Virus record (IMG/VR): IMGVR_UViG_3300027668_002455
Location: 32,001-96,000 of that record
Direction: 5' to 3' (one strand)
Length of the DNA stretch: 64,000 nt
From: a virus
Part shown: positions 21,409 to 46,753 of the stretch, piece after piece
Numbering within the stretch: the stretch's first letter is position 1
How the letters are laid out: each line of letters begins with the position of its first letter
The notes under the pieces: generated by a model
Seen by the model: the letters and a program-made list of their open reading frames with translations, nothing else
What the model was told of the DNA's origin: nothing
Database searches by the model: none
Translations under genes and position numbers: made by a program

Positions 21409-21685
21409 TAAGTACCTCTCCGTTAAATGAAACTATAACTTTCTCTACTTCGCTAACCTGTTTTATCTTTAGCTGCTCATCCTCGTCAAAAGAGGTTGCT
21501 ATTAAACAGTACCCCCTCACTGCTTGATCTTTCCGTTGAGCTCTGTTGCACGGGCAACCGGAAGGAAGCCCGTGGACAAGGGAGACAAAGGCTCGCCTTA
21601 CATGGTCAGGCTCTTTACCGAGACTGTTAATAACAGATATCATCTCTGCCAGATTGGAAACATAAAGAGTATTATCTTCTTTCAT
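21398..21685 (-). CDS. Hypothetical protein (GCPC motif)
   Basis: ORF with overlaps at both ends. Confidence 0.5.
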   Translation of the reverse strand: MKEDNTLYVSNLAEMISVINSLGKEPDHVRRAFVSLVHGLPSGCPCNRAQRKDQAVRGYCLIATSFDEDEQLKIKQVSEVEKVIVSFNGEVLNEF

Positions 21686-22044
21686 GTCTTTGAGATTCTG
21701 TTAAGAGTAAAATAGGACATGAGACTCAATAAGTAAAGGGGACAAATATAAATCAGACCTATTACTAGGGATATAAACAGGCAGTACCATGCGGCTAGGC
21801 ATAGCGGGCAGGTTACTAATTTTATTATGAAATTGCTTTTCGTGCAAGCCAGAAAAGAAATATAAGTAGCATCTATATCAACATTCAGGACATAATCCTC
21901 ATATTCCTTAATAAGGAGAACACCGTCTAGCTTCAGGAGCTTTCCGTATTCTACCACCACATTAGTGTTAAACCACACAATTAACACTGAGGTAATAAAG
22001 GAACTAAAAAGCAACAATATCTCTATATCTAATAACTTAAACAA
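21682..22044 (-). CDS. Membrane protein with a CPxC motif (DUF1360-like)
   Basis: TM helices, LVTCPLCLAAW. Confidence 0.55.
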   Translation of the reverse strand: MFKLLDIEILLLFSSFITSVLIVWFNTNVVVEYGKLLKLDGVLLIKEYEDYVLNVDIDATYISFLACTKSNFIIKLVTCPLCLAAWYCLFISLVIGLIYICPLYLLSLMSYFTLNRISKT

Positions 22045-22111
22045 CTTATCAATTATATAAGGTTAACAACTAATTTAACAAAATTTTGTTTTAAGTGTCA
22101 TAACTTTTCTC

Positions 22112-22503
22112 GGAACATGAAAGACACAGTACCCCCCCAATAAAGGAGGATACTGTATTCAAGTGTGTGTCTTTAAACTTTTCTTCGGCCCCTTTAAATT
22201 TTTAATGCAGAGAGGATTTGAAACTCTGCGACACGAATACTGACGATTAAAAATCGTAACGGTCTACCATTTAGATGATGGCGGGAGGGAATGTGCGTAA
22301 AAACTCCACTTACAACCGTCTACCACAACACGCTGGGCATTGCCATAGTAGTTAACTATGATTCCTTGTTCCTGTGTATTTGCAAACAGGAGGCTATCCC
22401 TTGATTTGGAAGTAAGCCAACTCCCACCCTACTGTATTCAGTCATCTTAGGAAAACTCCACTGATTTCTCTCAGCGAGATTAAAAAGGATTCTACCTTTT
22501 TTC
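22112..22503 (+). ncRNA. Candidate structured ncRNA, unassigned family
   Basis: Largest ORF-free gap; 9 or more stems including nested long-range pairings; most G-U pairs favour the + strand; ends in a hairpin with a T-run. Boundaries are approximate. Confidence 0.5.
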
Positions 22504-22506
22504 TAC

Positions 22507-22710
22507 TTAAGTATTATCTCTTAACCATTTTGCTGTCAACTCTTCTTTTACTGTAATTGTATCTCCCCCAAGCATCACTAGGTTAGTCCCAGTGCCCGTC
22601 ATCACGTGGTGGTAGAGAACGTTTTCACAATTTACCACGACTAAGTTGTCACTTATATCGGTAAGCTCCAGCATCAAGATGGGCTGGCTTGTTGAATATA
22701 CATCAGACAT
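22507..22710 (-). CDS. Hypothetical protein (FlbD-like small beta protein)
   Basis: ORF behind TTGACA-N16-TAATAT; ...GDTITVKE motif. Confidence 0.5.
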   Translation of the reverse strand: MSDVYSTSQPILMLELTDISDNLVVVNCENVLYHHVMTGTGTNLVMLGGDTITVKEELTAKWLRDNT

Positions 22711-22754: not shown

Positions 22755-23249
22755 TTAAACGCCGGTACTACCAAACCCACCGGTTCCCCTCACTGACTCG
22801 GCAAGATCAGGCACCTCCCCCCATTCGGCGTCATGGTATTTTTCGATTATTAACTGAGCAACCCTAGACCCGTGCGAGAATTCAATGGTACTACGAGAAC
22901 CAAAGTGGGATTCATAAGAATTAACTGTGTTTCTTTTGTGCTCGGGAACAAATAATTCTTCTGGTAAATTTAAATTGATTAAAACTACGCTGATTTCCCC
23001 CCGATAACCCGAGTCTATCACCCCACCAAGGACGTCTAAACCAAACCTTACTGCGAGCCCACTGCGGGGGGCTATTCTTCCATAGTACCCGTGAGGTATC
23101 TCGACAGCGATACCTGTCGGAACCTGAACCCTCGCCATGGGGGGAATAACTATACGTGATAAACACGACAAATCATAACCAGCATCCCCGTAGCCGCCCC
23201 GAACTGGGGCTCGGGCGTCGGGGTTAAGTTTTTGAAAATTAATTTTCAT
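22755..23249 (-). CDS. dut: Trimeric dUTPase
   Basis: AGYDL, PRSG, GVIDSGYRGEI, RVAQL, RGTGGFGSTG; start revised to 23249. Confidence 0.95.
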   Translation of the reverse strand: MKINFQKLNPDARAPVRGGYGDAGYDLSCLSRIVIPPMARVQVPTGIAVEIPHGYYGRIAPRSGLAVRFGLDVLGGVIDSGYRGEISVVLINLNLPEELFVPEHKRNTVNSYESHFGSRSTIEFSHGSRVAQLIIEKYHDAEWGEVPDLAESVRGTGGFGSTGV

Positions 23250-24120
23250 CCGTAACGGCCCTCCCCTTATCATTTTCCCAATCTTTTTCGGGCCTATCAA
23301 TAATTTCATTTCTATAAACAGCACCACGGATAATATGGCTTTCCTTGCCGCCTGTTTTCTCTATAAGCTTTAACAGGGAATTAATATCCTTAGGAAAACA
23401 CGTACCCCCATAGCCCTTTTTACCGTCTGGTCCCGGAACTTGTGTGTGACTTGGGCCGATCCTATCGTCCATCCCCATTAACTGCGCCACCGCGTTGTAA
23501 TTGATGTGCATAGATTGGCACCAATCATAAATTTCATTACAAAAAGAAACCTTTGTTGCCAAAAAAGAATTTCTGACAAGCTTCGCGGCTTCTGCCTCGC
23601 GCGTAGATGCCCATACTAAATTTGCTCCTTGTATTTTTTTATTTCTCTTTGCCGTAACAAAGATTTTACGTAGTATGACTTTGAGAAGTTCGACATCCTC
23701 ACCCGGTTTGGGACTGTCTAATCCGATAATCCAATCTTTATTATTCCTAAAATCATCCTCCCAAAGACTTTCAGTTAAAAACTCTGGCATGAAAGCTACC
23801 CCGAGTCGCTCGCAAGTTCCGACTGGAACAGTGGAGCGAACAACTATGCCCGTAACCCCGATATCTTTGAGGTCCCCGACGACGCTTTCTACGATTCGAG
23901 TGTCACAGGCACCATCTTTCAGTGCTGGTGTCGGGACGCAAACAAAAACCACATCACACATCACGAGGTCTTTCATTTGTAAATCAGATGGAACGCGCTT
24001 GTTCTCATCAATATCATAAACTAAAATGAGATTGTCGTCTAAATCAGCCGCATCATCGCGACAACCCAAAAGCTTCGTGGCTTTTCCTACATATCCATGT
24101 CCTACAATTCCGATGTTCAT
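23239..24120 (-). CDS. UDP-glucose/GDP-mannose 6-dehydrogenase family
   Basis: GHGYVG, CVPTP, RSTVPVG, PEFL, GYGGTCFPKD. Confidence 0.9.
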   Translation of the reverse strand: MNIGIVGHGYVGKATKLLGCRDDAADLDDNLILVYDIDENKRVPSDLQMKDLVMCDVVFVCVPTPALKDGACDTRIVESVVGDLKDIGVTGIVVRSTVPVGTCERLGVAFMPEFLTESLWEDDFRNNKDWIIGLDSPKPGEDVELLKVILRKIFVTAKRNKKIQGANLVWASTREAEAAKLVRNSFLATKVSFCNEIYDWCQSMHINYNAVAQLMGMDDRIGPSHTQVPGPDGKKGYGGTCFPKDINSLLKLIEKTGGKESHIIRGAVYRNEIIDRPEKDWENDKGRAVTDEN

Positions 24121-24597: not shown

Positions 24598-24879
24598 TTA
24601 TTTTTTGTCAAAGTCGGGGTCAGGAGACCCAGCGGCAGTGAGATTAGCAGTGGGGCAATAAACAATAGTGGGGCGACCCATTACCTTGCGCCTAACGCCG
24701 ACACGTCGAAGCTGGCCCCTTTCAACCGCTTTATTTACCTTCAGCTGTACGGATACAGCAGAAAGCTTACCGTCAAGAGTTTGATAAACATCATTTACGG
24801 TAAAATTGCTAGCTGGCCATGCTACATCATAGGACGGGCGGCCACGTTTAGGTTTGTTAGTTACTGTTGGATTTTCCAT
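24598..24879 (-). CDS. Small DNA-binding protein (AT-hook-like KRGRP plus winged-helix-like region)
   Basis: PKRGRP, GRP..VY; standalone promoter-gene-terminator unit. Confidence 0.6.
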   Translation of the reverse strand: MENPTVTNKPKRGRPSYDVAWPASNFTVNDVYQTLDGKLSAVSVQLKVNKAVERGQLRRVGVRRKVMGRPTIVYCPTANLTAAGSPDPDFDKK

Positions 24880-24887
24880 AGTAAAGA

Positions 24888-24953
24888 AGTATAGGTTATT
24901 TGTTTTTATAAGTCAATCTTTTTTTTGCTTTTTCCATATAAAAGGTTCATATT
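24888..24953. promoter_or_regulatory. Back-to-back sigma70 promoters at the strand switch
   Basis: Minus: TTGACT-N17-TATACT-N8-ATG. Plus: TTGCTT-N17-CATATT-N5-ATG. Confidence 0.7.
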
Positions 24954-24958
24954 AAAAT

Positions 24959-25378
24959 ATGACTATTTTAGATGCCTCTAGTAAACTTTTTGATTGGTTT
25001 TCACTAAGTGATAAATTTAACTTTGAAGAAGATATCCACAAGATTATACCTAAAGCAAAGAAGGAAGAAAAAGCCGCCCTCAAGTGTGCTCTTACAGAAT
25101 TTGAAGGCTTGGACATTGTAAAACGTACCGAAATTAACTCAGAAGAATACTGGGTTTTAAAGAAGGGCTTTCAGACCTTTGAGCAGGATGTTACTCTTTC
25201 TCCAAAAACGTCCATGTTGATATGCCAGTTAACCAATGCATTCTGTAAGGTTTTGGGGGTGGAAGATGAAGAGTGTGACCCCAAAGACATCAAAGAGATA
25301 GATATTAATAATTTAATTTTAATATGCTACCACTTCATTAACGAGACCGACGACACAACAGACCCATCCCAGAATTAA
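24959..25378 (+). CDS. Hypothetical protein
   Basis: First gene of the plus-strand block. Confidence 0.6.
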   Translation: MTILDASSKLFDWFSLSDKFNFEEDIHKIIPKAKKEEKAALKCALTEFEGLDIVKRTEINSEEYWVLKKGFQTFEQDVTLSPKTSMLICQLTNAFCKVLGVEDEECDPKDIKEIDINNLILICYHFINETDDTTDPSQN

Positions 25379-35047: not shown

Positions 35048-35124
35048 GCTCTCGTAGCTCAATTGGATAGAGCATCTGTCTTCTAAACAGAGGGTTCTGG
35101 GTTCAAGTCCCAGTGAGAGTACCA
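35048..35124 (+). tRNA. tRNA-Arg(UCU)
   Basis: Full cloverleaf, anticodon loop CTTCTAA, GTTCAAGTC T-arm, encoded CCA. Confidence 0.95.
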
Positions 35125-39476: not shown

Positions 39477-39791
39477 GTGAACTTTTCTCTCAAGGAATAT
39501 GTACTAAGAATTAAGTCGGAAGCTATTCAGGCTGGATACTCCTTGAGAATTGATGAAAGCGAGATGGATACCGTCACTCTGGTCTCTAATCCAAAGACCA
39601 GTAAGGTTGGGATGGCATTAATTTCGCCCAATATTTTTGGTGATTTAAAAATACGGACCTTTTTAATTAATCAGCGTAAATATCAATGGGCCAAAGACGA
39701 GGGATTTAGCCTTGACGAGATGATAGAGCTAAAAGATGAAGGGGTTTTCCTTGAGGTAGACCCTAGGAAAATGGTTAATTTTTTATTATAA
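39477..39791 (+). CDS. Hypothetical protein
   Basis: GTG start 11 nt after GTGTAA. Confidence 0.55.
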   Translation: MNFSLKEYVLRIKSEAIQAGYSLRIDESEMDTVTLVSNPKTSKVGMALISPNIFGDLKIRTFLINQRKYQWAKDEGFSLDEMIELKDEGVFLEVDPRKMVNFLL

Positions 39792-46334: not shown

Positions 46335-46753
46335 GGGAGCGTACTGGATTCGATTTAGATTCTTACGCCAGATTGCAAGCAGAGGATGATGGTTGGCCTC
46401 TTAAAAAAACTATCAAAAACCTATATGCCAACAATGACGTTGACATGGCTCCTTCGCTAGCTGAAGCAGACGAGATTCTCGCTCGTTTTGGCTGGGCTGA
46501 AGAGGCCGCGCTGGTAGCTTAGTTCTACCCCGTCCTGCCTCGGATGCTCGCTAAGAGGGTCAGGGCGTCGATAGCGAGCAAAAACTGGAGCACAACAGTA
46601 AAGGAGCCCAGTATAAAATTGATACATCCTTTGCGAACTCGTACAGGCGGTTTGTCGGTGACATGCCAAGCGAGTATTAACACCGACTAAGCTTGTAGTA
46701 TATTTGAGCCGACGGCTCTAAAGACGCGGGTTCGATCCCCGCCGCTTCCACCA
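46335..46753 (+). ncRNA. ssrA: tmRNA (one-piece), tag reading frame 46427-46522
   Basis: 5' GGGAGCG..CTGGATTCGA and 3' GGGTTCGATCCCC.CCGCTTCCACCA; G3-U alanine identity pair; tag ANND...AALVA*. Confidence 0.93.

Follow-up and report, generated by a model that had tools for sequence, protein, structure and literature searches.

Introduction

Large intricate RNAs of bacteria and phages to which no function has been assigned are rare. To our knowledge, every such large RNA that has been studied (RNase P, tmRNA, OLE, GOLLD, ROOL and raiA) has given unexpected biochemistry. GOLLD, ROOL and OLE form RNA-only homo-oligomeric architectures (PMC12286853).

The RNA described here resembles GOLLD (RF01998) and ROOL (RF03087) in being large, multi-domain and pseudoknotted, and in being encoded by a stand-alone phage or prophage gene. 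In both cases the genomes also carry tRNA or tmRNA genes, and discovery came from comparative metagenome analysis. It differs from them in that no sequence or structure match is found (cmscan, E ≤ 10), in having about half their size, and in lying in a nucleotide-metabolism cluster instead of beside a tRNA array.

Three other kinds of system bear comparison. Like the phage morons and the PeSL-type cassettes of T4-type phages, the gene is a self-contained promoter-gene-terminator unit inserted between genes that otherwise abut, and related phages carry it at two alternative junctions; unlike them, its cargo is a structured RNA and not a protein gene, and a co-varying direct repeat surrounds the terminator. 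Primer transcripts of the ColE1 RNA II and T4 ori(uvsY) type are likewise structured, contain a purine-rich segment and lie near a strand-switch region. In the present gene, by contrast, a strong terminator precedes the repeated site in the DNA and conservation is of the RNA type, without an antisense regulator or a DNA-unwinding element. Finally, a likeness to CsrB/RsmZ, 6S RNA and GlmY is proposed, in which an abundant stable RNA would present a mimic of a site found elsewhere, although the repeated GGA hairpins, the 6S-like rod and an Rfam match are all absent. This sequestering or mimicry likeness is an analogy, and only the identity of the two repeat copies, c1 and c2, suggests it.

The Gene and Its Strand

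The stretch of DNA that was analysed, called the window below, is 64,000 nucleotides long. Its largest ORF-free gap, as the original prediction had stated, is the internal one at 22045-22506, which measures 462 nt, against 289 nt for the next largest; all 27 of the motif and coordinate statements in that prediction are exact. The gap is flanked by two minus-strand ORFs, one of 67 aa (22507-22710) and a hydrophobic one of 120 aa (21682-22044). Judged by comparison with its homologues, the gap is the gene for a large, ornately folded phage ncRNA that is predicted to be independently transcribed. The transcription unit has the following parts.

22118-22504, minus strand: ncRNA gene of about 385 nt, both ends set by the predicted promoter and terminator
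22511-22539, minus strand: predicted sigma70-type promoter, TTGACA at 22539-22534, a 17-nt spacer and TAATAC at 22516-22511
22116-22158, minus strand: predicted intrinsic terminator, a 15-bp G/C-rich stem (22124-22158) with a 5-nt loop and a U-rich tail
22052-22081, minus strand: promoter-like site of the downstream 120-aa membrane-protein gene, outside the RNA

The end points proposed earlier, about 22112 and 22503, are close to these limits. The promoter sits within the last part of the 67-aa ORF that precedes the RNA, and a promoter scan calls the same site in a slightly shifted register. About 31 of 40 homologues have TTGAC at the matching upstream position, some 35 nt before the RNA, and in most of these TAnnnT follows after 17 nt. 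The terminator is also conserved, with 93% of its cells paired and compensatory changes in 7 of 10 pairs (helix 13). The two stems that the original prediction listed at 22120-28/22166-74 and 22126/22151 are those that form it, now with support from covariation. Since promoter and terminator are both conserved in homologues, the earlier suggestion of an independently transcribed large ncRNA is upheld as far as predicted signals can show. No conserved ORF was found in the RNA region; among homologues, the longest ORF that starts with ATG changes position, and its median length is 44 aa.

The strand, however, is the opposite of the one first proposed. The original prediction was of a plus-strand transcript, antisense to the genes on either side, that might switch between mutually exclusive pairings. 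In favour of this, the hairpin at 22482-22498, read on the plus strand, resembles a terminator in having a T-run behind it, and two copies of an 11-nt repeat in the window could serve as alternative partners. Nevertheless, when the single sequence was compared with dinucleotide shuffles (100 per strand), the minus-strand fold gave a z-score of −2.50 with no shuffle as good, whereas the plus-strand fold gave −0.48 with 34 of 100 shuffles as good. The expectation that folding should surpass shuffled controls was therefore borne out on the minus strand and failed on the plus strand. Counting wobble cells in the helices in the minus sense gives 309 G-U/U-G against 52 A-C/C-A, which fixes the strand as minus and contradicts the earlier statement that most G-U pairs point to the plus strand. 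The conserved TTGAC-17-TAnnnT and the U-tailed G/C hairpin both point the same way. As the minus strand is also the direction of the flanking genes, the RNA is not antisense to them. The T-run hairpin near 22503, taken for the 3′ end, is the 5′ hairpin P1 just after the promoter, and the second repeat copy on which a switch would depend is not conserved. A plus-strand antisense switch is hardly credible in the face of these data, while we consider it very likely that the locus encodes a real minus-strand structured ncRNA of a family absent from Rfam.

With regard to the gene that follows, the −10-like hexamer of the site at 22052-22081 lies only 7-8 nt ahead of the TTG start at 22044, which suggests a leaderless or nearly leaderless mRNA for the membrane protein. 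Similar boxes are found in three other loci (L009, L099 and L115).

Structure and Covariation

The predicted fold comprises about 13 helices, with a multi-branch 5′ domain, a three-way domain, a long-range closing helix and two pseudoknots. From the 5′ end of the RNA, its elements are as follows.

22482-22498, minus strand: P1, weak A/U-rich 5′ hairpin right after the predicted transcription start
22456-22478, minus strand: P2, hairpin with the purine-rich, near-invariant loop GAGAGNAAA (helices 2 and 3)
22392-22452, minus strand: P3 multi-branch domain, P3 being 22444-22452 paired with 22397-22405 (helices 4 and 5)
22415-22418 with 22392-22395, minus strand: pseudoknot PK1, between the P3b loop and a segment whose bases change jointly with it
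22370-22391, minus strand: P4, hairpin followed by an A-rich linker
22343-22361, minus strand: P5, 7-bp hairpin whose loop starts with UA
22323-22341, minus strand: C/G-rich joining region, near-invariant
22258-22320, minus strand: central three-way domain, in which P6 (22314-22320 paired with 22258-22264) encloses P7 and P8
22284-22307, minus strand: P7, with a near-invariant loop of about 16 nt at 22289-22303
22266-22282, minus strand: P8, within the P6 domain
22243-22257, minus strand: P9, hairpin (helix 10)
22230-22240, minus strand: X1, the 5′ strand of P10, with a long-range partner at 22155-22171
22189-22229, minus strand: P11 (22207-22229) and PK2 (helices 11 and 12)
22213-22215 with 22189-22191, minus strand: pseudoknot PK2, between the P11 loop and a downstream G-run

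Covariation was tested on a MAFFT alignment (A2) of 40 sequences, using 64 pairs in 13 helices and 500 shuffles. Standard pairs occupy 88.8% of the cells as compared with 75.0% in the shuffles, and both sides have changed in 45 of the 64 pairs (32.3 in the shuffles). The contrast is largest for cells with double changes, of which there are 393 against 134 ± 11; the covariation that the original prediction had called for is therefore present in the homologues. The covariation score is 0.482; shifting the partners by 1-3 columns lowers it to 0.09-0.13. None of the 500 shuffles matches the observed value on any covariation measure. The compensatory changes thus go beyond what relatedness and composition give, as for structured ncRNAs in general, and they preserve the predicted fold across about 40 divergent uncultured marine tailed phages.

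The individual elements differ in how they are supported. In the 5′ domain, P1 (helix 1) is 91.6% paired with both-side changes in 2 of 4 pairs, and the outer 3 bp of P2 change from CUC/GAG to CCC/GGG or CCU/AGG in 9-10 sequences. P3 encloses the hairpins P3a and P3b (the latter at 22408-22425). Since MAFFT aligns the 5′ domain poorly, P3a, P3b and P4 were supported by folding each sequence separately; at the position of P4, a hairpin recurs when 32 homologues are folded independently, each time with another stem sequence, and almost every lineage has a P4 stem of its own. PK1 and P10, which MAFFT also aligns poorly, were examined by comparing own with foreign partners, and many different complementary combinations occur in PK1 across homologues. 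P5 (helix 6) is 94.6% paired and shows compensatory changes in 6 of 7 pairs. The joining region that follows contains the majority of the invariant columns in A2, and some homologues have a small hairpin inserted there. In the central domain, P6 (helix 7) reaches 99.6% pairing with 6 of 7 pairs compensatory, and helix 8 reaches 98.8%. The figure of 68% for P8 (helix 9) is due to its 5′ strand being misaligned by one column in the window-like sequences. All 4 pairs of P9 are compensatory, and the partners in PK2 change together in L036, L096 and L110.

The long-range helix P10 joins X1 to a segment that combines the 3′ portion of c1 with the nucleotides immediately ahead of the terminator, and it shares about 4 nt with the base of the terminator stem. 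Its own partner pairs at −8.4 kcal/mol against −5.7 ± 2.5 for foreign partners, of which 19% are as good. The original prediction had given GAATAC at 22235 two mutually exclusive partners. The copy at 22155 holds as P10 and co-varies, while the copy at 22434 fails, and with only one co-varying partner and a second copy that is not conserved as a repeat the proposed switch falls as well. The other local stems seen in the window sequence recur, through covariation in relatives, as elements of the fold: 22207/22224 is P11, 22243/22252 is P9, 22344/22355 is P5 and 22369/22387 is P4, and GGCT/AGCC (22392/22415) turned out to be the pseudoknot PK1. The long-range pairings GGGAG/CTCCC (22283/22421) and GGAAT/ATTCC (22288/22361) are not conserved in relatives, and neither is the repeat GTCTACCA.

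Homologues and Novelty

About 42 distinct homologues were collected from IMG/VR and from metagenome contigs with a conserved 20-nt pattern and a profile search. They come from 14 of 80 dUTPase loci, about 28 of 36 IMG/VR pattern matches and 17 metagenome contigs. The 80 loci were obtained by a dUTPase search in IMG/VR in which protein identity was only 40-58%, and in 14 of them nhmmer finds the RNA element, with E-values down to 1e-82. Nucleotide conservation of the element exceeds that of the neighbouring proteins; no close relatives of the two small proteins that flank it in the window were found in IMG/VR. A blastn search of deposited phage genomes with four family members gave no match.

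One homologue lies in a 158,301-bp phage genome (G003), which has direct terminal repeats, is complete by CheckV and carries one copy of the RNA, in keeping with the occurrence of the RNA as a single copy in each genome. It encodes a DNA polymerase, a DnaB-type helicase, a terminase and tail fibres, and the helicases of its nearest cultured phages are only about 25% identical. About 18 kb from its RNA gene, G003 encodes its only transposase-like protein, of 502 aa (L370:8130-9638, plus strand; PHROG phrog_506). Another copy, 98% identical to that of L002, was noted on a 44-kb contig (L187, CAZYHH010000001.1) binned with an uncultured Pseudomonadales MAG. This contig is probably viral and was merely grouped with the bacterial MAG by binning, which is at best a weak hint at a Pseudomonadales host.

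The RNA matches no family described in Rfam 15. The scan covered 4227 models, including tmRNA, RNase P, SRP, 6S, GOLLD, ROOL, OLE, raiA, HEARO, manA, IMES-1 to IMES-4, group I and II introns and riboswitches. At gathering thresholds, the window gave just two matches, the tmRNA at 46335 and the tRNA at 35048, and none at the RNA locus, so the earlier statement that it belongs to no known family stands after a cmscan run. A permissive scan of the locus returned noise, for instance IMES-1 at 12.9 bits (threshold 81) and SAM_alpha at 11.6 (threshold 36). Three divergent homologues gave weak matches only (0.076 ≤ E ≤ 8.2), far below gathering scores and without a recurring family; those in L004 overlap the terminator. 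In the accessible part of the literature there is no description of the RNA. An IMG/VR structured-RNA survey (PMC10690425) has unnamed candidates, which may include pieces of this RNA. On present sequence evidence, then, this is a new family of large, pseudoknotted phage ncRNAs with predicted independent transcription.

The family is abundant in marine viral metagenomes, and it has a well-defined gene and diversity sufficient for a solid structure model. The defined gene and the sequence diversity make the RNA amenable to direct chemical probing, cryo-EM and pull-downs.

Genomic Context

In the conserved cluster to which the RNA gene belongs, dCMP deaminase, dUTPase and dNMP kinase are encoded together with three further proteins, one of about 145 aa, a basic one of 93 aa and a membrane protein of 120 aa. 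Upstream of the RNA gene in the window, on the minus strand, are a dUTPase gene, a UDP-glucose-dehydrogenase-like gene and a dCMP deaminase gene. The Pfam model matches the dUTPase ORF (22755-23327, minus strand) in two separate parts. Reading from the GTG start gives the protein an N-terminal extension, and translation probably begins further inside, at about residue 26.

Within this same cluster the RNA gene takes one of two positions. In the window and nine other loci it stands between the genes for dUTPase and the membrane protein, the dUTPase gene being followed in some cases by a 67-aa ORF, while at most loci it stands between the gene for the protein of about 145 aa and that for dNMP kinase. 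Where the cassette is missing from a junction, the two genes abut; in the window, for example, the 139-aa and kinase genes are 2 nt apart. To judge from these tight empty junctions, the promoter-RNA-terminator unit behaves as a movable cassette of the moron type. The gene downstream varies as well: it may encode the 120-aa membrane protein, dNMP kinase or others, and in at least six loci it is convergent, which argues against a leader or riboswitch role. There is no constant position before one functionally coherent set of genes on the same strand, as a riboswitch or leader would have.

The neighbours of the RNA are dUTPase, dCMP deaminase, dNMP kinase and small genes. An intron was rejected, since the ORFs on the two sides belong to different families and adjoin each other in relatives that have no cassette at that site, and there is no Rfam intron match. 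A guide-RNA system of the OMEGA/TnpB/IscB, IS110 bridge RNA or CRISPR kind was also rejected, no effector nuclease or recombinase being adjacent.

In most phages the gene directly upstream of the RNA encodes a protein of 135-181 aa (family F0; in the window 24959-25378, plus strand, 139 aa), and the RNA promoter is embedded in the 3′ end of this gene. A gene of this kind, for 139-145 aa, is found near the RNA in every case. The F0 protein has no match in Pfam, PHROG or Atlas, and it is a candidate partner of the RNA.

The Direct Repeat around the Terminator

A direct repeat of 20-25 nt brackets the terminator in nearly all homologues.

22167-22188, minus strand: c1, purine-rich tract on the 3′ side of the RNA, the first copy
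22095-22113, minus strand: c2, the second copy, just past the terminator and outside the terminated RNA

The two copies co-vary between phages, a copy scoring 12.6 against its own partner and 7.2 ± 1.9 in foreign pairs. Their spacing is variable (57-73 nt), and c2 is retained at loci with a convergent downstream gene. In c1, an additional base always follows the first three or four, which argues against a simple homogenisation of c1 and c2 by gene conversion. We know of no other RNA gene in which a co-varying repeat is arranged around a terminator.

Partners for the repeat were sought within the RNA and in the genomes. The purine-rich 5′ part of c1 has no conserved antisense segment within the RNA. 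Pairing of c2 with the U-tract was not above foreign controls and was rejected, as was a role of c1/c2 as a genome-wide motif, further copies being absent from the 64-kb window. A perfect 10-nt complement of the c2 core does lie at 39477-39489 (plus strand), where it immediately follows the GTG codon that opens an ORF of 104 aa. At the start of the orthologue in G003 there is no c2 complement, so the match in the window was judged to be due to chance and dismissed as a trans target. A GTGTAA element was noted ahead of that orthologous start (about 94750-94765 in G003, L369). In a genome-wide duplex search of G003, the best duplexes were with the antisense of the locus itself only.

If we had to guess, we would suggest that a single sequence-specific factor recognises c1 as well as c2. 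More specific, and in our view unlikely, is a new class of large trans-acting phage RNA with self-mimicry, in which the single-stranded 3′ tract c1 is kept identical to c2 beyond the RNA's own terminator. If this were true, the RNA would compete with its own locus for the factor or guide the factor to the locus, and its abundance could be coupled to read-through, to local DNA transactions or to mobility of the cassette.

Possible Roles of the RNA

As the best explanation overall, we favour, with some reserve, a stand-alone minus-strand gene for a stable, trans-acting structured RNA of about 385 nt. Host RNA polymerase would transcribe it early from the sigma70-like promoter, it would be released at its own terminator as a stable RNA, and it would act in trans through its tertiary fold. 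The contact surfaces would be the invariant single-stranded loops together with the purine-rich c1 tract, and c2, past the terminator, would present the recognition sequence again, on read-through RNA or on DNA. Action in trans instead of as a leader seems likely to us. Among specific functions we put first, tentatively and from the anatomy of the RNA, that of a protein-binding scaffold at the core of a ribonucleoprotein or of a decoy for a protein.

The competing view of a cis-acting leader, a giant riboswitch-like attenuator, would have the fold control the terminator at 22124-22158, with c2 as the alternative 3′ strand in read-through RNA. A co-directional gene does follow the terminator at most loci, the c1 bases engaged with X1 recur in c2, and the overlap of P10 with the base of the terminator stem would suit such a control. 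However, at the loci with a convergent downstream gene, at least six in number, c2 is still there, the family of the downstream gene changes with the arrangement, and that gene has a promoter-like site of its own. Moreover, c2 failed as an alternative partner of X1, with −4.97 kcal/mol as compared with −5.00 for foreign partners. We regard the attenuator as improbable. The transcript could instead belong to a replication origin, as the original prediction had offered for an alternative, and prime DNA synthesis via an R-loop with c1 and c2 as iterons or as the R-loop site. This idea draws on the purine-rich direct repeats c1 and c2, which flank a hairpin, and on the location of the cluster next to the switch of gene orientation and cumulative GC skew at about 25 kb. 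It is opposed by the nature of the conservation, which is compensatory RNA pairing with G-U wobble on one strand, by the strong terminator that would free the RNA ahead of c2, and by the occurrence of the cassette at two different positions. Iterons, furthermore, would not be expected as two repeats only, at a variable spacing. An origin is thus very improbable.

An RNA-only homo-oligomer, in which the invariant loops would make intermolecular contacts, is unlikely but has a precedent in the architectures cited above (PMC12286853). The RNA is phage-encoded, large and ornate, and has a few near-invariant loops amid freely co-varying stems. At about 385 nt it is nevertheless smaller than ROOL or GOLLD, Rfam similarity to these is absent, and inspection of A2 revealed no self-complementary loop conserved across homologues. 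The pseudoknots and the compact core of invariant unpaired nucleotides would be in keeping with a ribozyme or other catalytic RNA, acting for example on phage tRNA-like RNAs or on nucleotides, and the linkage to nucleotide-metabolism genes can be read in the same sense. Such a role is nonetheless quite improbable, as similarity to the ribozyme families of Rfam is absent and no substrate is evident. The stand-alone trans-acting RNA remains the reading that we prefer.

Other Features of the Genomes

At about 24.9 kb, in the divergent intergenic region where the skew switches, the window has a 20-nt direct repeat (24867-24944) whose copies are 58 nt apart. Each copy holds the reverse complement of an ATG start context.

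The RNA marks a lineage of uncultured marine phages of about 158 kb with unusual RNA genes, among them tRNAs and a tmRNA with a 31-residue tag. The tRNA of the window that the Rfam scan found at 35048 is a tRNA-Arg. The 31-residue tag is encoded by the window's tmRNA (46335-46753, plus strand), and the tmRNA of G003 (L368:3676-4080, minus strand) has a nearly identical long tag, which indicates that the long tag is conserved in the lineage.
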